Shown here piece by piece: positions 2,266 through 54,041 of a stretch of 64,000 nucleotides of DNA. The first letter of the stretch is position 1; every line of letters begins with the position of its first letter. A program made the translations under genes and the position numbers. The DNA comes from a virus (Duplodnaviria; Caudoviricetes): the IMG/VR virus record IMGVR_UViG_3300010352_001202; one strand, written 5' to 3'. A model generated the notes under the pieces. It did not search any database, was not told where the DNA came from, and saw nothing but the letters and a program-made list of their open reading frames with translations.

Positions 2266-2979
2266 ATGATGAAAAGGGGAAGACATTTAATCAAAAGCCA
2301 TATGACAATGGAGTATGCGTTTACCGGGATCAGAATTCAATCAGCATGCTTAACTCCGGTTGAATGGCATCTAACAGTAGACCTTGTAGCCACTGAGAAG
2401 AAAGGTAAAACAAAGACAGAAATCGAATACAATGCAGGTGTCACATATCAGAAGCTTTATTTTTGGTTAGACACAAATTTACCTAACATTGTGCTAGTTG
2501 ATGTCACTAATGAAGACGACTTGTATATTGCAAATTTATCAGCTAATATAGCACTGTATTGCCCGGCAAATCCCGGAGATGATTTGTTTGCACAGTTACT
2601 GCACTCTAAATTAACAGCATTGGCTGGTGAAGATTTACTCATAGGCGAAATACACCTAAAGGGTAGTGATATGTCACTTCAGTACACATTTGATTGTGTC
2701 GATGGTGCATATGACTTACCGATTGCAACAGCAGATTATTACACCGAAGGTACCACAAGAGATGAAATACCTTGGTGGACCAGAGATGATGGATTCTGCT
2801 TTGAATTTGTAAAGCCTGCAGATTCCGAAGTTAGCGATGAAGAATTGTTTAAAGACATTTTTGATCCTATGGATGAATTTGAAAGAATAATGAAAGAGGC
2901 TTCTGAGACACATATTGGTGTTGTTCGGGAACCAGCAAGGATAGTTCAGGTTGAAAAATGGAAACCAAAAACTGTATGA
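2266..2979 (+). CDS. hypothetical protein
   Basis: AAGGA RBS, 237 aa, acidic. Confidence 0.8.
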   Translation: MMKRGRHLIKSHMTMEYAFTGIRIQSACLTPVEWHLTVDLVATEKKGKTKTEIEYNAGVTYQKLYFWLDTNLPNIVLVDVTNEDDLYIANLSANIALYCPANPGDDLFAQLLHSKLTALAGEDLLIGEIHLKGSDMSLQYTFDCVDGAYDLPIATADYYTEGTTRDEIPWWTRDDGFCFEFVKPADSEVSDEELFKDIFDPMDEFERIMKEASETHIGVVREPARIVQVEKWKPKTV

Positions 2980-3593
2980 CAGTCCCGTTTACCTATAGAA
3001 TTATATGCCCCAACGGCACTAAATATTACGGTGTAAGATATGCTATAGGGTGTAAACCCGATGATCTATGGAATACATATTTTACATCATCCAAAGAAGT
3101 TAAGGCTTTATTAACAATATTTGATAAAGAATTATTCATCTGCGATATAAGAAAAGTATTTAATAATAAGATAGATGCACTTAGTCATGAAGGTAGGGTA
3201 TTAAAAAGAATTGTAGATAAGCCGGGATGGTTAAATAAGCATAAGGGCGATTTAAAATTTCATAACTCGTCCCCGCATTCAGAAGAGACAAAAAGAAAGA
3301 TTAGTATTGCTATTACCGGAAAGAAACAATCATCCGAGACTATAGAAAAGCGAGTTAAAAAGAATACAGGTAAGAAAAGAATTAATCCACAAGGTCATGC
3401 TCAAACAGAGGAAACAAAGAAAAAAATTTCCAAATCTCGTAAGGGTTTACCGGGGCCTATGTTGGGAAAAATTCATTCAGAAGAAACAAGGAAAAAGATA
3501 TCTATAGCTAATTCTGGAAAAATTCATAAGCCACATTCAGAAGAGACAAAAGCAAAGATGAGAGAAGCATGGATTCGTCGAAAAACGGTGTAA
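2976..3593 (+). CDS. GIY-YIG-like homing endonuclease with NUMOD3 repeats
   Basis: FTY...YYG N-terminal motif; repeated HSEETKRKIS-type NUMOD3 motifs; start at ATGA overlap 2976. Confidence 0.8.
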   Translation: MTVPFTYRIICPNGTKYYGVRYAIGCKPDDLWNTYFTSSKEVKALLTIFDKELFICDIRKVFNNKIDALSHEGRVLKRIVDKPGWLNKHKGDLKFHNSSPHSEETKRKISIAITGKKQSSETIEKRVKKNTGKKRINPQGHAQTEETKKKISKSRKGLPGPMLGKIHSEETRKKISIANSGKIHKPHSEETKAKMREAWIRRKTV

Positions 3594-4499: not shown

Positions 4500-4856
4500 A
4501 TGAAAGCTAAAGCACTCAAAGGAAAAGTTCTTGTTACAGATTTAGAACGCGGTAGTCGCGTTCTAAGGGGTATTATTTTACCTGACGACAATGGCAAGAG
4601 CGAAGGTATCCGTCCCCGTTGGGGAAAGGTCTATTCTGTCGGCGAAGACATTACCGATATTGTACCCGGGCAGTGGATACTTGTTGAGAACGGCCGATGG
4701 ACCAGAATGCTTAAGGTTAAGCAGGATGACGGTTCAGAACTTCAAATGTGGGGCGTTGAGTGGCCCAAGTCTGTAATGCTTGTTTCGGACGAAGATCCCG
4801 AAGTAGAAATCTTCTCTGAGTTTGTACAAGCAAACGAACGCGGCCAAGTTTACTGA
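4500..4856 (+). CDS. groES: GroES/Cpn10-like co-chaperonin
   Basis: ALKGKVLV...GIILPD...GKVYSVGE pattern typical of Cpn10. Confidence 0.75.
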   Translation: MKAKALKGKVLVTDLERGSRVLRGIILPDDNGKSEGIRPRWGKVYSVGEDITDIVPGQWILVENGRWTRMLKVKQDDGSELQMWGVEWPKSVMLVSDEDPEVEIFSEFVQANERGQVY

Positions 4857-4870
4857 TTGTTTTGCGAAAA

Positions 4871-4898
4871 TATTGCATATCCTCACAGATATGCAATA
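4871..4898. repeat. perfect 11-bp inverted repeat upstream of clamp loader
   Basis: TATTGCATATC-ctcaca-GATATGCAATA. Confidence 0.7.
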
Positions 4899-4933
4899 CA
4901 CTTGCCTTAACACTAGTTACGAAAGAATAACGA

Positions 4934-5869
4934 ATGAAACAGCTTTGGACTGAGCAATACCGACCTACCTCTATTAAAGACTATGTCTTTAAAGACGGAA
5001 AACAAAAGAGACAAATCGAGCAATGGATTTCTGGCGGAGCACTTCCGCATATGCTTTTATCTGGTGCTCCTGGCACAGGTAAAACAACCCTTGCTAAAGT
5101 TCTATTAAACGAACTAGGTGTTGATCCATTTGATATTAAAGAAGTGAACGCTTCTAAAGATAACAATGTAGACTTCATTCGTGATAGTATTACACGGTTT
5201 GCTGAAACAATGGGCGTAGGCGAAATCAAATATGTATTACTCGACGAGGCAGATTATCTAACTATTAATGCGCAGGCTGTATTGCGCAATACCATGGAAA
5301 GATATGCAAGCACGGTTAGATTTATTCTGACTTGCAATTATCCCCACAAGATTATTCCTGCGATTCAGTCACGCACTGAAACAGGGCGCATGGACATTAG
5401 CAAGCTAGACAAAGACGAGTTTACTCTGCGGCTTGTTAACATTTTAACACTGGAAAACATCGAGTTCGACATGGACATTGTCGACACTATGGTCCAGGCA
5501 GCTTACCCAGACCTGCGTAGGGGAATTAGCTTGATTCAGGCGAACTCCTTTAATGGTCAGCTTCAATTACCTGACAACAGCGAGACCGTTAGCGATTATA
5601 AGATCGATATGGTCGCTTTATTTAAAGCAGGCAAGTATAAAGAAGCACGACAGCTTATTTGTACACAAGTAGGCCAAGAAGAATACGAAGACATCTTTAA
5701 ATTCATGTATCAAAACCTTGAGATTTGGGGTGACGACGATGTTAAGGAAGGCAAGTGTATTCTTGCAATTAGAGATGGATTGGTAAAGCACACAAGTTGT
5801 GCGGATGTAGAAATTAACCTTTCAGCTACACTGTGCGAGCTGGAAATGATCGCAAAGGGCGTTTTATGA
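4934..5869 (+). CDS. clamp loader subunit (RFC small / T4 gp44-like AAA+)
   Basis: WTEQYRP, GAPGTGKT Walker A, NAS, LLDEAD Walker B, FILTCNY, IQSR. Confidence 0.92.
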   Translation: MKQLWTEQYRPTSIKDYVFKDGKQKRQIEQWISGGALPHMLLSGAPGTGKTTLAKVLLNELGVDPFDIKEVNASKDNNVDFIRDSITRFAETMGVGEIKYVLLDEADYLTINAQAVLRNTMERYASTVRFILTCNYPHKIIPAIQSRTETGRMDISKLDKDEFTLRLVNILTLENIEFDMDIVDTMVQAAYPDLRRGISLIQANSFNGQLQLPDNSETVSDYKIDMVALFKAGKYKEARQLICTQVGQEEYEDIFKFMYQNLEIWGDDDVKEGKCILAIRDGLVKHTSCADVEINLSATLCELEMIAKGVL

Positions 5870-6225
5870 GCAAAGAAAAAGTATTCATCGTTTTATCACA
5901 CAAGCATAACCTTAAGAAGGGTACTCGTGATGAATGGGAAGTTACGGAAACTGTTGAGTTTGTAAACCAACTCCGTAATAAGCACACAACAATGTCCAGT
6001 GCCATCGGCGATTATTTGAATAGAAAGATGTTGTCGGGCTCCCGCGTAGGAATGGGCGATTACGAAAAGTTCGAAGAGTATATTCGTAAGAAGTATCCTA
6101 AGCAATTGGGAGAACTCGATGCAGCTTATCGTGAAAAACAAGTTGTCATTGAACAGCCGGTATCTGATCTTATTACAGATGAGTTTGGCAATCTGCGTCC
6201 CAGAACGGTTTTTGACACAGTATGA
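5866..6225 (+). CDS. hypothetical protein
   Basis: Start at ATGA overlap 5866. Confidence 0.75.
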   Translation: MSKEKVFIVLSHKHNLKKGTRDEWEVTETVEFVNQLRNKHTTMSSAIGDYLNRKMLSGSRVGMGDYEKFEEYIRKKYPKQLGELDAAYREKQVVIEQPVSDLITDEFGNLRPRTVFDTV

Positions 6226-6824
6226 AACAAAAAATCATACTAACAGACGCCGATGGCGTTCTTGTAGACTGGAACAACGGATTCCGTAGATTTATGGAAT
6301 CCAAGGGCCATCCGCAATTACCGGACACCGATAATGATTATAGTATGGCTGTTCGACACGGAATTACAATTCCGCAAGCGCAGGCATACATTAAGGAATA
6401 CAACGAAGGACCGATGATTGCCGAACTCGATGCATTTGCTGATGCAATTAAAGGTGTTAAAGAATTAGCATCTTTAGGTTTCAGGTTCACTGTTGTTACG
6501 AGCATTAGCAGCCATCCGGATGCTAAGGTTTATAGAACACAAAACCTAAAGGCTTTATTCGGCGATGTGTTTGATGAGATCCATTGCATTGAAATGGGCG
6601 CAAGCAAAGCCCACATTCTGTTAAGCAACTGGGCCGGTACAGGATATTTCTGGATCGAGGATCATATGCGTCAGGCAGAAGCAGGATGGGAAGCAGGACT
6701 GAAAACTGTGCTGATTAATCATCCCTACAATGCACACTATAAGACTGATTTGTTTCCAAGGGTTAGTTACGAAACGCCCTGGGCAGAAATAGTTCAAATG
6801 GTTAAAAAAGAATATAACCTATAA
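6222..6824 (+). CDS. HAD-family phosphatase / 5'-nucleotidase-like
   Basis: ILTDADGVL motif I, VVTS motif II, WIED motif IV. Confidence 0.8.
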   Translation: MKQKIILTDADGVLVDWNNGFRRFMESKGHPQLPDTDNDYSMAVRHGITIPQAQAYIKEYNEGPMIAELDAFADAIKGVKELASLGFRFTVVTSISSHPDAKVYRTQNLKALFGDVFDEIHCIEMGASKAHILLSNWAGTGYFWIEDHMRQAEAGWEAGLKTVLINHPYNAHYKTDLFPRVSYETPWAEIVQMVKKEYNL

Positions 6825-6826
6825 TC

Positions 6827-7321
6827 ATGGCAAAACCTTATGTGTATCGGTGTGAGCATAAGGAAACTAAGCGATTCTATATAGGATATAGAGAAGCCAA
6901 CCATTTTCCTGCATATTTAGATTTCGGAACACACTACTTTACAAGTTCTATTGAAGTTAGCAATAATTTCAAAGATTATACATACGAAATACTTGCAGAA
7001 TTCACTGAGCCAAAGACAGCATTTGAAATTGAGCAAATGCTTATATACAAATCAAGAAACAATCCATTGCTAATTAACCAGCATTGGAAAACAACTGTTG
7101 TATCTATCGATGAATTAAAAACTCTAAGATATTTTAAGGAACATGTAGTCAAATATAGTAAGGTTAATGGAAATCCTTACCTTGCCAGAAAGAAAAAGAA
7201 AAAGAAAAAACTGCGCATACTAACCGAGGCCGAAAGGTTAGGACGGTCTGATGCCGAATGGATGCAAAGAAGGAAAGAAAAAAGAATTAGAAGAGAGCAA
7301 AAGAAATTACTCTCTAAATAA
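6827..7321 (+). CDS. GIY-YIG-like nuclease domain protein with Lys/Arg-rich C-terminal tail
   Basis: PYVY...FYIGYR...YFTSS...E.EQ.LI...N pattern; RKKKKKKK run and basic tail. Confidence 0.7.
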   Translation: MAKPYVYRCEHKETKRFYIGYREANHFPAYLDFGTHYFTSSIEVSNNFKDYTYEILAEFTEPKTAFEIEQMLIYKSRNNPLLINQHWKTTVVSIDELKTLRYFKEHVVKYSKVNGNPYLARKKKKKKKLRILTEAERLGRSDAEWMQRRKEKRIRREQKKLLSK

Positions 7322-7325
7322 TTAT

Positions 7326-7780
7326 GAAGCTGTAAGGTTGGTGCGCCTAATTAAAATTGCACTGGCGCATAGCTCGGAATGGAGCTCGATGGTCAAGCCG
7401 AACTTTATTGGTACGGTTATCCCGTGGGCTTCCACGATTAGGGCATGGTGTTATCAGAGTACATAACTCTGATCATCAAAGTATGTGGAATCCACAGAAA
7501 TTAACACCAGATAAAAATAAGTTCGCTATCGGTATGTGAAAGAAAGGTATGGCCGATAGATTGCGTTACAAGCGACTGAAATGCGAGTAACATATGCAAT
7601 GACTCGAAAGAGCCCATCAACGATTTCCATATGGTTGCAGTTAGACATAATCAATCCGACACTGCGTAAAGTTGTTTTTCAGTCTGTGGCGATGCCTGTC
7701 AGGTGAGTTGAAATTCCAAATTTTTATTTGGGTGTTTTGACGATACCCTTTCTGTGGACTCCACCGTCAGGTACCAAATA
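7326..7780 (+). ncRNA. candidate large structured non-coding RNA
   Basis: ~560-nt gap without a credible ORF; more than ten stems including long-range pairings; TAAATA at 7315-7320 just upstream. Strand is inferred from that hexamer. Confidence 0.6.
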
Positions 7781-7854
7781 CTCTCATATTCCGCATTATG
7801 CCACATATGCAATGTTCTGATTTATGTGCATACACAATATTGTTCACTCTCATA

Positions 7855-7861
7855 ATAAATA
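7855..7861 (+). promoter_or_regulatory. T4-late-like promoter ATAAATA
   Basis: Upstream of GAGGA RBS and ORF 7883. Confidence 0.6.
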
Positions 7862-7882
7862 TATCATTCAGAGGATTATATT

Positions 7883-8200
7883 ATGGCAGTCATGCAAACA
7901 GTCAAGGACAACCCAGGGAAACTTCTACTAGGATCAGCCGGATCAGTTATTGCTATTGTGACCGCATTATTTGCAGTAGATGCACGATACGCTCACGCAG
8001 CGGATGTTGAGAAGAACAAAGCGGAAACCCACATAATTATTAGAGAAACGACTGCCAATTTACGAAAGCAGATGCTTGAAGACAAACTATTCGAAATTGA
8101 TGTAAAAGAAGCACAAACAAAACTATCTCCTGTCGAGATGGCTATGAAAGAAAGATATAAGCGTCAAATAAAAGAAATAACAAGAGACAGCAGCAAATAA
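7883..8200 (+). CDS. membrane-anchored coiled-coil protein (possibly lysis/virion related)
   Basis: N-terminal hydrophobic helix, GAGGA RBS. Confidence 0.75.
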   Translation: MAVMQTVKDNPGKLLLGSAGSVIAIVTALFAVDARYAHAADVEKNKAETHIIIRETTANLRKQMLEDKLFEIDVKEAQTKLSPVEMAMKERYKRQIKEITRDSSK

Positions 8201-8202
8201 AC

Positions 8203-8228
8203 AAAAAGGGCCTATACGGCCCTTTTTT
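8203..8228. terminator. bidirectional intrinsic terminator
   Basis: AAAAAGGGCC-TATAC-GGCCCTTTTTT between convergent genes. Confidence 0.85.
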
Positions 8229-8244
8229 ACTGTATCACCCCTGT

Positions 8245-9000
8245 TTAATCATCTTCCCCGTAAATCTCTAGAACTTCAGCAACAAGCGGATCACGCTCAA
8301 TGTGTTCGCGTTTGAACACACATACTGCCATTGATCTCTTATTGTTTAATGCTAGTCTTTCTAGAAAGTCCTTAAGTCCGTTTTTATCAAAGCCACGATC
8401 ATGTTGCTTTAAGTCACCAGTGATAACCATGCTACTATTCTCACCGATACGAGTTAATAGCATTTTGGTTTGGTCTGGTGTAGCATTTTGCATTTCGTCA
8501 GCAATGATGTACGAGTTCTTAAATGTTCTACCACGCATGAAGCCTAATGGTGCAATTTCAATTGAACCTTCTTCTAGCATACGCTTTGTTTCTTGTAATC
8601 CATAATATTCTTCGAACACGTCAAAAATAGGTCTTGTCCAAGGTTCCATTTTCGCATTCAAATCGCCTGGTAAAAATCCGTGCTTCTCGTCTACGCTAAC
8701 AGCTGGTCTTGTTAGAATAATTTTAGTAATTTCCCCTTCTCTTAGTGCCTTGATTGCTCGCAGAACTGCTAGTAATGTCTTGCCTGTACCTGCAGGTCCT
8801 ACTGCAAATACCATGCGTTTTTCTAGCAATTGTTCTACATAATTTTCCTGTGCTGTATTACGAGGGATCATCTCAACTCTCTTGTAATTTCTATTTCCCA
8901 ACTTGACTACATTAGTAGTCTGCTGATCATCATGCTGATATTGGCGTGGTGAACGAGATTGTGGCGAAGACTTAGCCGCCATTTTGCGATTTTTGCTCAA
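8245..9000 (-). CDS. phoH: PhoH-family ATPase
   Basis: GPAGTGKT, LTRPAV, GFLPGD, MRGRTF, DEMQN, GDLKQHD; start set at TTG 9000 behind AAGGAG. Confidence 0.92.
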   Translation of the reverse strand: MSKNRKMAAKSSPQSRSPRQYQHDDQQTTNVVKLGNRNYKRVEMIPRNTAQENYVEQLLEKRMVFAVGPAGTGKTLLAVLRAIKALREGEITKIILTRPAVSVDEKHGFLPGDLNAKMEPWTRPIFDVFEEYYGLQETKRMLEEGSIEIAPLGFMRGRTFKNSYIIADEMQNATPDQTKMLLTRIGENSSMVITGDLKQHDRGFDKNGLKDFLERLALNNKRSMAVCVFKREHIERDPLVAEVLEIYGEDD

Positions 9001-9182
9001 GGTTATGCTCCTTACTGAGTTGTTTTTTTGGTGTGATGGATTGCTGAACAGGAATTGTTCATCCGGAGGAACGACGATAGATCTATCGCGTGTATTTGTC
9101 ATACCAGATATTTATGTGATTGCGATAATATTGTACTGGAAAGGCGGGTCTTTCAAAACTTTAGAAATCTTATTGAATACTG

Positions 9183-9189
9183 ATAAATA
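9183..9189 (+). promoter_or_regulatory. T4-late-like promoter; a divergent copy at 9109-9115 (-) faces phoH
   Basis: GATAAATA on +, CATAAATA on -. Confidence 0.6.
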
Positions 9190-9206
9190 ATCAAAACGAG
9201 GTGAGA

Positions 9207-9779
9207 ATGAGTACCGATTTAGACACCATTAAGCAGACGCTAGTAAACATTTCCAAGGGTAACGATATCCTCGACACCCTACTTGAGTTTGAAAGAACAC
9301 TAGACAATGCTGAATTATTTGCATATAAAAATTGGATCTTGGGCGAACTCGTCGAAGGTCCGACTATTAGTCGTTACTGGTACAAGACTGTATGGATGTA
9401 TCCATATGCTATGATGCCAGATCCAAACGGCGGTTTACGCCTACGCAAGATCGGAGCTAATGTTAGCTTCAAGAAGGGCGTGTTTAAGAAGCCTGTAAAA
9501 GTGGAAGGACCACAGGACTGGGTTAACCCAGAATCAAAGAGGGCCAAAATGGCCGAACACGAAATTTGGCTCGTGACAATTGAATTGCCATTAAAGTATA
9601 TTAATCGTGGGCTGGAACAAACCGACGATATTATTCAAAGAGACATCGAAGATACGAATGCGGAAATTGCAGATGCTTATGAGGAAGAAATGCCAGAAGA
9701 GTCAGTTGATGATGGCACAGGCGGTGATATGTCCGCTGGTCCTACAAGTGAAATGCAGCCTCCAGAGGAAGAAGTATGA
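9207..9779 (+). CDS. hypothetical protein, acidic C-terminus
   Basis: GAGGTG RBS before ATG 9207. Confidence 0.8.
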   Translation: MSTDLDTIKQTLVNISKGNDILDTLLEFERTLDNAELFAYKNWILGELVEGPTISRYWYKTVWMYPYAMMPDPNGGLRLRKIGANVSFKKGVFKKPVKVEGPQDWVNPESKRAKMAEHEIWLVTIELPLKYINRGLEQTDDIIQRDIEDTNAEIADAYEEEMPEESVDDGTGGDMSAGPTSEMQPPEEEV

Positions 9780-10531
9780 GCTTAAAGAATGGCGATCTAG
9801 CAGGTACTATCTTGCCTGATGTTTCTATTGACGAGTTTGAACCAAAAGCCGGCAGTAATGAAGATGTTATAGTAGTGGCTTTTTATCTCAACGACGAGGA
9901 ACCGGCGGAAGACCTTAACACATTCATCCAAAGAGGGTTTATCGACACCCTGGATGTTGAAGTAAGTCCCAATACAGATGAAGAAGGGCGCTATCTCGTC
10001 TTTGTCGAAATGTCGAGAGATGATACTTTTCCTCAAAAGTTCCAAGCGTTACTAAAGGACATTAATAATCTGGCAGGAGACAACACAGAGTGGAAGGTTA
10101 AAACCTACTTCTCAGAAGGTCAGTCTTTCTCGCCCGATGATCCTGCGCTATACAATTATGTTATTATTGATCCGGGCGACTATGTCCCAAAGGAAGACTT
10201 TAAAATGAAAGATATGACTGAAAACATCCAACATTTTTTTAGTGATTCCTATTTGGCTGGCTTGACTATTGATGGTAATATCGTTACACTAAGAGGTAAT
10301 AGTAAAAAGGTGGTCGCTGAAGTCGTTGACATTGGTGACTACGATACAGTGATAGGCAGAAACTTCTTAAGCGAATCTGCCTTTGGAATTAGTAATATAC
10401 CCATTGAGGCTAAAGTATTAAGCAGCATCTTAGGGAATTGCGATGTTCTACCACTTGGAAAATATCTTTTTGTCAATAGGGACGAGAGGGTAATGTTGCT
10501 TAAGAATACACAAATTGAATACGGGAAATAA
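9776..10531 (+). CDS. hypothetical protein
   Basis: 251 aa, ATGA overlap. Confidence 0.8.
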
Positions 10532-10535
10532 CAAC

Positions 10536-10757
10536 TTGGCTAAAGACAATAATGACATGATTATCACTAAGGGTCGCGTAACTGATACCGCCCCTGGCGC
10601 TCGATTTAAAGTTAAACTGGAAAACGGGCATGTCTTGAATGCAGTTGTTAGTGGAAAAATCCGTAAGAACAATATCCAGATCATTCTCGATGATCTGGTT
10701 GAGATTGAGATGAGTCCATACGATCTAACTCTAGGTCGCATCACATATCGCTTCTAA
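10536..10757 (+). CDS. infA: translation initiation factor IF-1
   Basis: FKVKLENGH...[11 protein letters not shown]...[17 protein letters not shown] closely follows IF-1; probable TTG start 10536. Confidence 0.92.
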
Positions 10758-10769
10758 TAGAAAGCACAC

Positions 10770-11594
10770 ATGAGCGAACGAAATTTCTACGAGATTCTCG
10801 GTGTCCCAAAGTCTGCATCGGAAGATGACATCAAGAAAGCTTATCGCAAGCTAGCAAGTAAATACCATCCCGATAAACTCAGCGATGCCGAGAAGGTATC
10901 AGGTGAGGCAAAGTTCAAAGAGGCTAAAGAAGCCTACGAGACTTTATCCGACGAACAGAAGCGTGCCGCATACGATCAGCACGGGCACGCATCTACAGAT
11001 CCCAATTTTGGTAGATCTCACTTCCACGATTTCGAACAAGGTTTAAATCCAAACGATATTAACGAAATCTTCAGCACTATCTTTGGCGGTAGGAGCTTTA
11101 ATTTTGGTACAGGCGCACAAACACAACAGCGCCAACCTATGTACCAATTAAACATTTCGTTAATGGACGCATACATTGGCAGAACTGTAACACTAGAGGG
11201 CAACCTGACGGTAAATATCCCGAAGGGCGTTCGCTCTGGTACTAAGTTCTATGCCGGTGGCAAGCTGATCAGGATTGAAGTTGCACCGGATTCTAAATTC
11301 AAGCGTGCTAACGACGATTTGCTGGTTGATGTTGAGATCAGCGCAATCGAAGCCATACTAGGTGCCGAAGCAGTTCTTGAACATTTAGACGGCTCTAAAT
11401 TACAGTTTGCTATCCCCGGTGGTATTCAGCCCGGGCAGATAATCAAGTTGGGTGGCAAGGGGATGAGAAACCCCGAGAATGATAGATATGGCGATTTGTT
11501 AGTGCGCATCGCAATTACCATACCAAGGACACCAACACAGGAAGAAAGAGTTGCACTTAAATCTCTGAACCACAGAGCATCAATTACAATCTAA
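10770..11594 (+). CDS. dnaJ: DnaJ/CbpA-type co-chaperone (no zinc finger)
   Basis: J-domain with HPD, G/F-rich region, C-terminal GKGM...GDLLV. Confidence 0.9.
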
Positions 11595-11602
11595 GGAAAA
11601 CA

Positions 11603-13825
11603 ATGAGTACAAAAAAAGTTGAGAAGATGGTTGAGCGGGCAGTTGCCATTGCAAATGATAACAATCATGAGTATGTAACACTCGAGCACATTCTTCTGTC
11701 ACTACTGCACGAGAAAGAGATCGATGCCCTGGTTCAGGCAATTGGCGGACAACCTGCAAAGATCAAAACAGATACAATTCAGTTCTTAGGTGATCCTGCG
11801 CTGAAGAAGCCAGATGCACTGAAAGAAGTTCCTGCCAAGCGCACCGCAGTACTGAATAGAACATTCCAGCGTGCCCTTACACAACTTGTGTTTAGCGGCA
11901 GGAATGAACTCAACAACGAGTCGGTGTTGCTCAGTATTTTGAGCGAAGAAACCAGCCACGCATATTACTTCCTTGGTAAGAACGGTGTTACCAGAGAAAA
12001 GATTATTGCCTATATGCGTAAGGCAGAAGAGAAGGCAGGCGATGCAGAGGAAACTCCGCTTGATTTGTTTGCACGCAACCTGAATAAGGAAGCATCAGAC
12101 GGTTCCATCGACCCTGTTATTGCACGCGAACGCGAAGTTATCGATACCATTGAAATCTTGGCTCGTCGCAAGAAGAACAATGTCATTTATGTGGGCGAAC
12201 CTGGTGTTGGTAAGACCGCACTTGCAGAAGGCCTTGCATTGAAGATTGTCAACAAGGATGTTCCTAAGGCGCTGCAAGACAAGGTTGTTTACAGCCTGGA
12301 TTTGGGTGCATTGCTTGCCGGAACTAAGTTCCGCGGTGACTTTGAAGAGCGTTTGAAGGGCGTACTTGATCAAGTCAAGAAGCTTGGTAACTGCATTATG
12401 TTCATCGACGAAATCCACATGATCCTTGGTGCAGGTTCTACAACCGGTAGCCAAATGGATGCTGGTAACTTGCTGAAGCCTATGCTTGCCAAGGGGCAAC
12501 TCATGTGCGTTGGTGCAACGACATACGACGAGTTCCACGAACACTTTGAGAAGGATAAGGCACTGTTGCGTCGTTTCCAGAAGTACGACATTCTGCAACC
12601 CAGCGCAGCTGATACCAAGCTTATCCTTAAGGGCATTGCGTATCAATACGAGAAGTTCCACGGCGTTACATTTGCCGAAGGTGCTACCGACATGTGCGTA
12701 GATTTGGCAGATCGTTACTTGAAGTCTAAGTTCTTCCCTGACAAGGCTATTGACATCATGGACTCGGCCGGTGCAATTGCCAAGCTTCGTGAAATCAAGG
12801 AAGTTAGTTGCGATATCGTTGTTGAACAGGCAGCTAAGATTGCACGCATTCCTGCAGCAATGATTGACATGAAGGAAAACGACCAACTGGAAAATCTTGC
12901 ACCGCGTGTGAAGAACAAGGTTTACGGTCAGGATGTTGCAATCGACAAGCTTGTGGAATCTATCTACATGTCTAAGGCAGGATTGCGTAACCCAGCCAAG
13001 CCCATCGGCAGCTTCTTGTTTACTGGTCCGACTGGTACTGGTAAGACATACACTGCAAAGAAGCTTGCAGAAGCACTCGGCGTACATTTCCAGCGTTTTG
13101 ACATGTCGGAATACATGGAAAAGCACACTGTATCCAAGTTCATTGGTGCTCCTCCGGGATATGTCGGACACGGCGAAGGCAAGATGGGCGAAGGTCAGCT
13201 TATTCAAGCAATCGATACCAACCCGAACTGCGTATTGCTGCTCGACGAAATCGAAAAAGCCAATCCAGATGTTATTACTGTGCTATTGCAGGTAATGGAT
13301 GACGGACGACTCACTTCTGCTAAGGGCAAGACTGTTGACTTCAGCAATGTGATTATCATCATGTCTGCCAACCTTGGCGCTGCTGATGCCGAAAAGCTGA
13401 AGATTGGCTTCGGGGATCAAGACAACGGTGGTGCAGTGGATGCAGAAATCAAGAAGTTCTTCAGCCCTGAGTTTAGAAACCGCCTTGATGCAGTCGTTAA
13501 GTTCAACAAGTTGACAATGGTCGAAATGAACCTTATTGTCAACGCTGAAGTTGAGAAGACTGAAGCAATGCTTGCTCCTAAGAACATTACACTGAATGTT
13601 ACTCAACAAGCACGCGACTGGTTGGCTAAGAGCGGCTACGATCCCAAGATGGGTGCAAGACCGTTCGAACGCTTGTTTGAAGCAAGAGTCAAGAAGCCGT
13701 TGTCAACAGAAATCTTGTTCGGCAAGCTGAAGAATGGTGGCCGTGCAAATGTCGACTACGATGTGGTTTGCGATACGATTACTGTTAATGTGTTGGATCC
13801 GATTCCTGTACAGACACTGATCTAA
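11603..13825 (+). CDS. clpA: ClpA-type AAA+ unfoldase
   Basis: Clp N-domain, two NBDs (GEPGVGKT, GPTGTGKT), RFDMSEY, IGF ClpP-docking loop, no ClpB middle domain. Confidence 0.92.
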   Translation: MSTKKVEKMVERAVAIANDNNHEYVTLEHILLSLLHEKEIDALVQAIGGQPAKIKTDTIQFLGDPALKKPDALKEVPAKRTAVLNRTFQRALTQLVFSGRNELNNESVLLSILSEETSHAYYFLGKNGVTREKIIAYMRKAEEKAGDAEETPLDLFARNLNKEASDGSIDPVIAREREVIDTIEILARRKKNNVIYVGEPGVGKTALAEGLALKIVNKDVPKALQDKVVYSLDLGALLAGTKFRGDFEERLKGVLDQVKKLGNCIMFIDEIHMILGAGSTTGSQMDAGNLLKPMLAKGQLMCVGATTYDEFHEHFEKDKALLRRFQKYDILQPSAADTKLILKGIAYQYEKFHGVTFAEGATDMCVDLADRYLKSKFFPDKAIDIMDSAGAIAKLREIKEVSCDIVVEQAAKIARIPAAMIDMKENDQLENLAPRVKNKVYGQDVAIDKLVESIYMSKAGLRNPAKPIGSFLFTGPTGTGKTYTAKKLAEALGVHFQRFDMSEYMEKHTVSKFIGAPPGYVGHGEGKMGEGQLIQAIDTNPNCVLLLDEIEKANPDVITVLLQVMDDGRLTSAKGKTVDFSNVIIIMSANLGAADAEKLKIGFGDQDNGGAVDAEIKKFFSPEFRNRLDAVVKFNKLTMVEMNLIVNAEVEKTEAMLAPKNITLNVTQQARDWLAKSGYDPKMGARPFERLFEARVKKPLSTEILFGKLKNGGRANVDYDVVCDTITVNVLDPIPVQTLI

Positions 13826-52847: not shown

Positions 52848-54041
52848 GTGGAAATCGATAATGTAAAAATGTGGGTGGGTTCTATGGAAGTAGAACAAGC
52901 TGCCCTGGTTCAAATCATGAACATCTCGCAACTGCCTATCCTTGCGGGTCATATGGCTATCATGCCTGATGTCCACATGGGTAAGGGTGCCACTGTTGGT
53001 TCCGTTATTCCTACCCGTTCTGCTATCATTCCTGCTGCTGTTGGTGTTGACATCGGCTGCGGTATGGTTGCTGCAATGACTAATCTGAGGGCCGAAGACC
53101 TTCCAGATTCGCTGTTCTCTTTGAGAAACCAAATTGAACGCGACGTCCCTGTGGGCTTCAACGAGCACGCAAAGGGCATTCCTTCTGTTTCCGGCCCGTA
53201 TGCTGATGTTCTACGAAAGAATCTCAACAAGACTATGGATGCTTTCGAGCACCTAGCCCTGAAGGCGAAGCTTGGCCGCGCTGACGAGAAGAAGATCGGT
53301 CGTCAGGTAGGTACGCTGGGTGGTGGTAACCACTTCATTGAAATCTGTCTTGATGTAAATGGTGCAGTGTGGGTAATGCTACACTCAGGTTCACGCGGCA
53401 TCGGCAATCAAATCGGTACCGTTGCTGTGGAACTTGCTAAGGAGCAGGCTGCAAAGCGCGGATACGGCTTGCCAGATGAAGATTTGGCTTGGCTGGAAGA
53501 AGGTACTCCGGAATTCGATGCGTATATTGAAGCAATGCATTGGGCGCAAGACTATGCACGTTTCAATCGTGATACCATGATGAATTTGGTACTTGCCGGC
53601 CTGCGTCACCGTATTCCGAAGATGCAGGTGGTTGGTGAGGTAATCAACTGCCACCACAACTTTACTTCTTGGGAAGAGCACAACGGATCCGGAATGTGGG
53701 TTACCCGCAAGGGTGCTGTATCCGCCAACGAAGGTCAGCTTGGCATTATTCCGGGATCGATGGGCGCGAAATCTTTTATTGTGAGGGGGAAGGGCAACCA
53801 TGACGCCTACTGTTCGTGTTCGCACGGCGCAGGACGTAAGATGAGCCGGAACCAGGCGAAAAAGCTCTTTACTTCTCTTGACTTGGCTGAGCAGACTGCT
53901 GGTATCGAATGTCGCAAGGATGACGCGGTGATTGACGAAATCCCGGGTGCATATAAGGACATTGATGAAGTTATGGCTGCACAGGCTGATCTTGTGGATG
54001 TTGTTACCACCCTGAAGCAGATTCTCTGTGTAAAGGGTTGA
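52848..54041 (+). CDS. rtcB: RtcB RNA ligase
   Basis: MPDVH.G, VGVDIGCG, GTLGGGNHF.E, HSGSRG, HHN, RKGA, PGSMG, SHGAGR, DE.P.AYK. Confidence 0.95.
   Translation: MEIDNVKMWVGSMEVEQAALVQIMNISQLPILAGHMAIMPDVHMGKGATVGSVIPTRSAIIPAAVGVDIGCGMVAAMTNLRAEDLPDSLFSLRNQIERDVPVGFNEHAKGIPSVSGPYADVLRKNLNKTMDAFEHLALKAKLGRADEKKIGRQVGTLGGGNHFIEICLDVNGAVWVMLHSGSRGIGNQIGTVAVELAKEQAAKRGYGLPDEDLAWLEEGTPEFDAYIEAMHWAQDYARFNRDTMMNLVLAGLRHRIPKMQVVGEVINCHHNFTSWEEHNGSGMWVTRKGAVSANEGQLGIIPGSMGAKSFIVRGKGNHDAYCSCSHGAGRKMSRNQAKKLFTSLDLAEQTAGIECRKDDAVIDEIPGAYKDIDEVMAAQADLVDVVTTLKQILCVKG

Follow-up and report, generated by a model that had tools for sequence, protein, structure and literature searches.

The RNA locus

The window analyzed here is a stretch of 64,000 nucleotides from IMG/VR record IMGVR_UViG_3300010352_001202 (Duplodnaviria; Caudoviricetes), whose source is a 184-kb contig, about 48% complete, of an uncultured jumbo phage. 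Between an open reading frame (ORF) for a SegE-like GIY-YIG endonuclease and an ORF of 105 amino acids (aa) lies a gap of 561 nt (7322-7882), the longest ORF-free stretch of the window. An initial annotation, made from the sequence alone, had called it the only long gap; it is the longest but not the sole one, since others of 213-388 nt exist. The same annotation had proposed that the gap encodes a large, multi-domain, pseudoknotted phage RNA, and strong covariation among homologues supports this proposal. Comparison of these homologues indicates that the window holds one member of a family of stand-alone structured RNA genes, read from the + strand and folded with four pseudoknots, which belongs to a single jumbo-phage clade. 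The RNA of the window is almost certainly a real structured RNA. The family is probably undescribed, as no description of it was found in the literature, most subscription journals being outside the coverage of that search.

Motif pattern scans and iterated profiles run over viral and metagenome contigs yielded 106 loci, which reduce to 55 non-redundant sequences. The collection leaned on a near-invariant loop and on synteny, and more diverged members could be missed. Searches guided by synteny gave one homologue and five empty sites, where a HAD gene stands directly before the 105-aa gene. The RNAs are about 370-470 nt long, with a core identity of 47-99%, and they occupy two loci corresponding to two paralogues. 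Paralogue A (428-469 nt), which includes the window copy, follows the HAD gene, at times with a kinase or a GIY-YIG gene between them. Paralogue B (369-453 nt) comes after a GH108 lysozyme gene, and the gene that it faces, of 190 aa, is specific to the clade. Each genome carries one or two copies: three of the four complete genomes have both paralogues and the fourth has B alone.

All homologues were found in one uncultured clade related to phage PA5oct. A blastn search of cultured phages with both paralogues gave nothing significant. A model restricted to the 3′ 229 core positions (R1) had no match in PA5oct, Atu_ph07, RaK2, 121Q, GAP32 or SCTP-2, the best E value among the last four being 1.7, and found nothing in four near-complete outgroup metagenomic jumbo phages. 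The pattern scan of GTDB genomes returned 17 matches, none of them homologous. With Rfam 15, no family was detected in the window at gathering thresholds, and E ≤ 10 gave chance matches only; 13 homologue loci were also negative.

Covariation and coding strand

Covariation was evaluated on MAFFT-based alignments, in which a few registers were placed by hand, with shuffle, slide and tree controls. In 48 sequences, the 63 named pairs of the core are paired in 93.0% of cases, versus 80.2% after shuffling and 34-42% after sliding, and changes on both sides were observed in 39 of the 63. The structure was read from the same 48 sequences, so the slid control is flattering and the double changes are the stronger evidence. 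In the 5′ domain of paralogue A, for which the alignment is rough, pairing reaches 72%, with double changes in 35 of 53 pairs. In paralogue B, the pairs of highest mutual information are nearly all canonical. These data show that the helices covary among the homologues, a check which the initial annotation had itself put forward. Of the outcomes it had named as refuting the proposal, neither an absence of covariation nor a confident match to an Rfam family was observed.

The strand was deduced from the comparison. G-U pairs outnumber A-C pairs by 69 to 2, and therefore it is the + strand that folds. The folding z-score, also suggested at the outset, was -2.5 on the + strand and -4.1 on the - strand; these values are suggestive, but they are weak alone and do not give the strand, hence the need for a comparative test. 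Furthermore, GNRA or UNCG sequences cap 16 of the 49 tetraloops of the variable hairpins, against one for their reverse complements, which points to RNA. Finally, among the unpaired columns, 33 show conservation in 45 or more of the 48 sequences, even though core identity drops to 47%. A conserved-nucleotide profile of this kind has been linked to riboswitch- or ribozyme-like biochemistry (PMC5737381).

Architecture of the RNA

The fold combines the four covarying pseudoknots (PK0, PK1, PK2 and PK3) with a near-invariant loop of 12 nt (Table 1). The 5′ boundary at 7326 is supported because the first five nucleotides form PK3 with a hairpin loop. This bears out independently the start near 7326 that had been predicted from a TAAATA motif, while the conserved 3′ end falls at 7769-7770. 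The compensatory variants of PK3 comprise GCAG/CUGC, AACAG/CUGUU, CACA/UGUG, UCUAC/GUAGA, UCCAC/GUGGA and UACAUU/AAUGUA. The 5′ ends scored 4.83 with their own partners versus 3.51±0.19 in 2000 shuffles (maximum 4.23). The P3 loop is the only one that looks palindromic, and a kissing interaction between two copies of it was considered; this was rejected because the loop pairs with the RNA's own 5′ end. In the P4 region, counting by column gives only 47% pairing, since MAFFT misaligns this stretch, and the pairs were hence read sequence by sequence. PK2 is paired in 86% of cases with four double-change pairs, and its loop-strand duplex is more stable than that of a shuffled loop in 48 of 48 sequences. 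The near-invariant loop has five variants in the 55 sequences; no site complementary to it was found elsewhere in the 184-kb contig, which represents about 48% of the genome.

Table 1. Positions in the window of the RNA, its structural elements and the ORF upstream.
Feature	Coordinates	Strand	Description and support
SegE-like GIY-YIG endonuclease ORF	6827-7321	+	Directly upstream of the RNA; PHROG 314, E 4e-6; GIY-YIG/SegE clusters in Atlas
Whole conserved RNA, paralogue A	7326-7769	+	About 445 nt; 55 non-redundant homologues; both ends from conservation and covariation
5′ end GAAGC	7326-7330	+	Pairs with the P3 loop at 7428-7432 (PK3); compensatory variants in both paralogues
PK0, H-type pseudoknot	7335-7363	+	7335-37/7346-48 and 7340-45/7358-63; second stem 95% paired, double changes in 4/6 pairs
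P2 hairpin	7364-7394	+	Internal loop and GGAAUG terminal loop; covariation
P2c small hairpin	7396-7418	+	Paralogue A only; aligned homologues, pair count depressed by misalignment
P3 hairpin	7421-7442	+	Loop forms PK3; covariation
P4 multiloop	7446-7509	+	With P5a (7454-7472) and P5b (7484-7496); pairs read sequence by sequence
P6 hairpin	7526-7559	+	Loop AGAAAGG (7541-47) with CCUUUCU (7747-53) forms PK2; P6 98% paired
P7 hairpin	7560-7600	+	Loop GACUGAA (7574-80) with UUCAGUC (7678-84) forms PK1; P7 93-99% paired, double changes in 11/11 pairs; PK1 84%
P8 hairpin	7603-7612	+	GAAA tetraloop in the window; length-variable; flanked by conserved GA and CCC; covariation and conservation
P9 multiloop	7619-7676	+	Includes P9b (7637-7665); P9 94% and P9b 100% paired
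Near-invariant loop ACAUAAUCAAUC, in P9b	7645-7656	+	9/12 positions identical in 48/48 sequences
Repeat X	7685-7701	+	17 nt, directly after the PK1 strand; YNUG, middle of about 8 nt (RYGAHRCY), GUCA
P10 hairpin	7702-7748	+	Length-variable; in many homologues its 5′ strand repeats the P6 loop sequence and can tie up the PK2 strand
Repeat Y	7753-7769	+	17 nt, directly after the PK2 strand; YNUG, middle of about 8 nt (RCUCYWCC), GUCA

All 13 pairings listed in the initial annotation, and the TAAATA at 7315-7320, do exist in the sequence at the positions it gave. Covariation supports the stems AGCTC/GAGCT, CGTGG/CCACG, ATCAGAGT/ACTCTGAT, CTATCGG/CCGATAG, CTC-GAAA-GAG, GCAGT/ACTGC and TGGTGTTA/TAACACCA, and CCAAAT/ATTTGG corresponds to the tip of the length-variable hairpin kept in all homologues. 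The pairing of GACTGAA with TTCAGTC is also real, but it is a loop-to-strand pseudoknot and not the domain-closing stem that had been drawn; taking GACTGAAA/TTTCAGTC as a nested stem was a wrong reading. The stem GTGCGCC/GGCGCAT is not conserved and the H-type pseudoknot takes its place; neither are the long-range pairings CGAACTT/AAGTTCG and TTGGTAC/GTACCAA conserved among the homologues. A further long-range match, of 15 out of 16 nucleotides, persists in the nearest homologue (13/14, with two compensatory changes) but shrinks to 5-8 bp in the other nine. It competes with conserved local and pseudoknot helices and is at best a lineage-specific alternative fold. As for TAAATA, the hexamer is found upstream of 26 ORFs genome-wide versus 3.6 expected (a 7-fold enrichment, the commonest form being GATAAATA), and it is likely the late-promoter motif of the phage. 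The copy at 7315-7320, however, does not hold as the promoter of the RNA: it shares nucleotides with a stop codon, it is without the GA, and the other paralogue-A homologues, 10 in number and read by eye, do not have it.

Twin repeats and an alternative partner for PK2

The repeats X and Y have the same two flanks of 4 nt, YNUG and GUCA. The middles enclosed by these flanks, about 8 nt long, differ between the repeats (27% identity only) and are separately conserved. On a tree built from other columns, the flanks of X underwent 24 changes and those of Y 23, and 18 of these occurred on the same branch. Control columns gave 2.0±1.2 same-branch changes with a maximum of 7 in 2000 draws. Likewise, 33 of 39 deviant letters in X are matched in Y; for three sequences, the register of X and Y was placed manually. 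The A and B paralogues of one genome differ in their flanks, and therefore the constraint on X and Y acts within each molecule. Two candidate partners of GUCA were tried, the UGAC beside the invariant loop and a local UGRY. They fit 31-33 of 40 paralogue-B sequences, and neither tracks the variants GGUR, GGCA and GUCC.

Besides the P6 loop, the PK2 strand has a second potential partner in the 5′ arm of P10. The two duplexes have the same mean energy (-8.7 and -8.7 kcal/mol, versus about -4 for shuffled sequences). Local folding of P10 sequesters the CCUU of this strand with a pairing probability above 0.5 in 27 of the 48 sequences, and the value is 0.36 in the window.

A possible two-state RNA

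The simplest reading that accommodates the paired changes of X and Y, the strands held by hairpin loops next to them and the competitor of PK2 is an RNA with two states. We propose tentatively, with a probability of about one in three (0.35), that it is a self-processing two-state machine in which X and Y dock one after the other, probably in a ribozyme-like manner. The adjacent hairpins P7 and P6 would act as guide arms: through PK1, the loop of P7 would hold the strand immediately 5′ of X, and through PK2, that of P6 would hold the strand immediately 5′ of Y. By analogy, these loop-held strands may be compared with the exon-binding loops beside the splice sites of group II introns. X and Y would then be equivalent, substrate-like modules offered in turn to one conserved core, putatively made of the invariant P9b loop and the GA, CCC and AA joiners. 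P10 would toggle Y in and out by competing for the PK2 strand. Self-processing might occur at matching points of X and Y, either as cutting or as excision or circularization of the intervening segment (about 50-85 nt in the family, 68 nt in the window), and the ends of the product could possibly be sealed by the RtcB ligase of the clade. In its strongest form the proposal would define a new class of large natural ribozymes, unrelated to group I, group II and RNase P, in which two guide loops bring a pair of matched sites, one after the other, to a single catalytic core and the hairpin between the sites is excised or circularized; we regard this form as unlikely.

The RtcB gene is located at 52848-54041 (+) of the window. 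It was found in seven genomes of the clade, namely all four complete ones, that of the window and two fragments of 55-62%. Ten jumbo phages of the outgroup, whose genomes are complete or nearly so, gave no RtcB. RtcB joins ends of the kind that such cleavage leaves.

Several points weigh against a self-processing, two-state RNA. The RtcB association represents one clade and one evolutionary event and is a lead only, and RtcB has tRNA-repair roles of its own. Rfam found no known ribozyme core. No compensating partner of X and Y was seen inside the RNA or in the readable flanks, and so no docking site emerged from this search; a fixed pocket explains the paired changes only if equal affinity is selected. 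The switch between P10 and PK2 is not universal, as the 27 of 48 sequestered sequences indicate, and paralogue A is optional, being present in 7 of 26 syntenic loci.

Alternative explanations

The strongest alternative, possible though rather unlikely, is that the RNA is static and architectural and that its copies join into a homo-oligomer or a cage, as ROOL and GOLLD do, with X and Y as equivalent bridge modules and the pseudoknots as purely structural elements. The size class, the phage origin, the multiloops and the pseudoknots all match ROOL and GOLLD, which form RNA-only cages (PMC12286853). Paralogue B is moreover preceded by a promoter-like element of its own and by an A/C-rich linker that is unstructured, and in two relatives another large RNA fills the same slot. 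In contrast, the one palindromic-looking loop, in P3, is explained by PK3, and no conserved self-complementary kissing loop was seen in the family. The 33 invariant unpaired positions (at least 45/48) also exceed the 10 highly conserved nucleotides of ROOL (≥97%; PMC5737381), thresholds and sampling differing between the two counts.

X and Y might instead pair with each other. Identical repeats on opposite strands give a two-fold pseudo-symmetric helix-loop-helix (X5′:Y3′ and X3′:Y5′), which a homodimeric protein of the host or the phage could bind or cut, like the bulge-helix-bulge of tRNA splicing, so that the RNA would be a protein scaffold or decoy. The cross-paired fold is favored in some homologues, the UGRY/GUCA pairs vary on one side only with pairing kept in 90% of cells, and the clade carries RtcB. 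One shared protein would, however, not be expected to tolerate different flanks in paralogues of the same genome, and no neighboring gene is common to the A and B loci. We consider a protein of this kind quite improbable.

The failure to find a compensating partner for X and Y would also be explained if their co-variation were a by-product at the DNA level, with short flanks copied from one repeat to the other when mutation is templated, or slippage occurs, across the palindrome of P10; a real RNA would then contain two functionally independent repeats. Templated mutation between repeats is known in T4, and X and Y lie 31-68 nt apart across this palindrome. Nevertheless, the letters they share form two blocks of 4 nt on either side of a middle that differs and is separately conserved, no form deleted between X and Y occurs among the 48 aligned copies, and conversion would have to match the pace of substitution over 4-nt homologies. 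Such an origin of the paired changes appears very unlikely.

There is very little to recommend a replication primer or origin RNA of the R-loop type, or a cis-acting 3′ untranslated region or terminator element at a site of convergent transcription. Both the A and B loci end a transcription unit and face a convergent gene, either immediately or with one small gene in between, and in the window P10 and the U's behind it receive a terminator-like score. The 184-kb contig, however, shows no turn in GC skew, the U tract is missing in most paralogue-B copies (CCUUGGUCU), and four pseudoknots with an invariant loop go far beyond the needs of a terminator.

That the RNA is a guide or partner of the adjacent GIY-YIG nuclease in a ribonucleoprotein (RNP) has a negligible chance, even though the ORF ends 4 nt before the RNA and the pair recurs in one related phage: the ORF adjoins only 2 of the 11 readable paralogue-A copies, the others following the HAD or kinase gene, and no B copy, its product is an ordinary SegE-like homing endonuclease, and the RNA has no variable guide segment. 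The same counts led us to discard an OMEGA/HEARO-type nuclease RNP, a kind marked by obligate linkage with a nuclease gene and by a variable guide. An obligatory partnership thus appears largely refuted by the gene order, and the ORF is an occasional passenger outside the RNA family.

Relation to known RNA classes

The RNA fits the description of a large ornate phage non-coding RNA in its length, multistem junctions, covarying pseudoknots and many conserved nucleotides. ROOL averages 581 nt, contains six multistem junctions and has three pseudoknots (PMC5737381), and many GOLLD RNAs exceed 800 nt (PMC12286853). Like them, the window family is large, phage-borne, multi-junction and multi-pseudoknot; as in GOLLD, its 5′ half is variable and its 3′ half more conserved. 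Unlike them, it is smaller (370-470 nt), it is confined to one clade of lytic-type jumbo phages, and it is not found beside tRNA genes, whereas ROOL and GOLLD often occur close to phage or prophage tRNA islands: ARAGORN detected no tRNA or transfer-messenger RNA (tmRNA) in the window and no tRNA in eight homologue loci. It also has the twin co-evolving repeats, of which we found no mention for either class. The covariance models of ROOL, GOLLD and OLE matched neither the window, even at E ≤ 10, nor the 13 homologue loci. On sequence and predicted fold, the RNA resembles the large ornate phage RNAs in the ROOL/GOLLD sense and stands outside every family tested.

The likeness to group II introns, including circularly permuted ones (PMC8637638), is that loops pair with the strands abutting two putative reaction sites, as exon-binding sites do with intron-binding sites (EBS-IBS), and that alternative conformations exist. 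Group II introns are defined by six domains and by a D5 hairpin with an AGC triad and an AY bulge (PMC8637638). The consensus of the window family has no such D5 and no six-domain wheel, the family has no Rfam match, and it does not lie inside a gene. A group I intron, which interrupts a gene and has a P3-P7 pseudoknot core and a P4-P6 domain, was rejected as well: the GACUG/CAGUC helix is a hairpin-loop pseudoknot, the order of helices differs, the element is intergenic and Rfam was negative. Reverse transcriptase (PF00078) is absent from the four complete RNA-bearing genomes, which rules out a retron, DRT or telomerase-like template RNA, and the absence of TROVE (PF05731) from the same genomes rules out a Y RNA/Ro60 pair. 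With tmRNA the family shares four pseudoknots, a similar length, a CUCCACC near the 3′ end and an AUAAUC that resembles the resume-codon context. Unlike tmRNA, whose marks are a tRNA-Ala-like domain (T-arm, G3:U70 acceptor) and an open tag frame, it has neither a T-arm nor a 5′ GGGG acceptor strand; ARAGORN and Rfam were negative, and any tag frame that follows the invariant loop is interrupted by indels. RNase P RNA, in which P1 joins the two ends and a P4 pseudoknot goes with CR-I and CR-V motifs, was rejected since Rfam was negative and the RNA ends are unpaired in the homologues.

Genomic surroundings

The PhoH protein of the window is nearest to those of Pseudomonas phage PA5oct and Atu_ph07 (50-56%). 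PA5oct shares the gene order of positions 4500-13825, namely a GroES-like chaperonin, clamp loader, HAD hydrolase, PhoH, structural protein, DnaJ and ClpA. An IF-1 gene is located at 10515-10757. The window contains two free-standing GIY-YIG genes of PHROG 314 (2958-3593 and 6827-7321), which are typical mobile passengers of the RNA-bearing clade.

Conserved elements surround paralogue B. Upstream (L023:3130-3300 and equivalents), we observed a promoter-like TCAA...TAAAAT together with a short hairpin, and also a small motif that resembles a pseudoknot, GCGGG...UGACGCG...CCCCG...GCGUA, and that shows compensatory changes. This motif is separated from the RNA by an A/C-rich linker of 60-130 nt, and the B transcript may be about 650-750 nt long. 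Some 40-110 nt downstream (e.g. L030:3780-3830) are conserved GCGAAGC/ACGAAGC mini-hairpin repeats (GCGNAGTTTACGAAGCGAG), followed by a GGTC..GACC hairpin. The protein of 190 aa encoded convergently to paralogue B (L015:3396-3968, - strand) is limited to the clade and absent from cultured phages. Its predicted fold is weakly ATP-grasp-like (E 3.5e-4, TM ~0.4), and no link to the RNA emerged.

In two relatives, a large conserved non-coding element of another kind is found behind the lysozyme gene, in the slot of paralogue B (L045:3380-3760 and L053:3330-3720). Compared column by column, its two copies are about 77% identical, and they have no match in the window family, in Rfam or among cultured phages; they probably represent a second undescribed RNA family. 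The GCGAAGC/ACGAAGC element is also present after this alternative RNA at both loci.

Discussion

To our knowledge, only a handful of large intricate RNA classes exist in bacteria and phages; where the function is known, several act as ribozymes or belong to the core machinery. What is new here is a detailed fold backed by covariation, the existence of two paralogues, and two repeats that mutate together without a visible partner. A second large RNA occupies the same slot, which suggests that one locus is reserved for RNAs of this kind in these phages. If the RNA does process itself, it would represent a new class of large ribozyme and be categorically new; if it oligomerizes instead, the principle of the RNA cage would be extended beyond ROOL and GOLLD.
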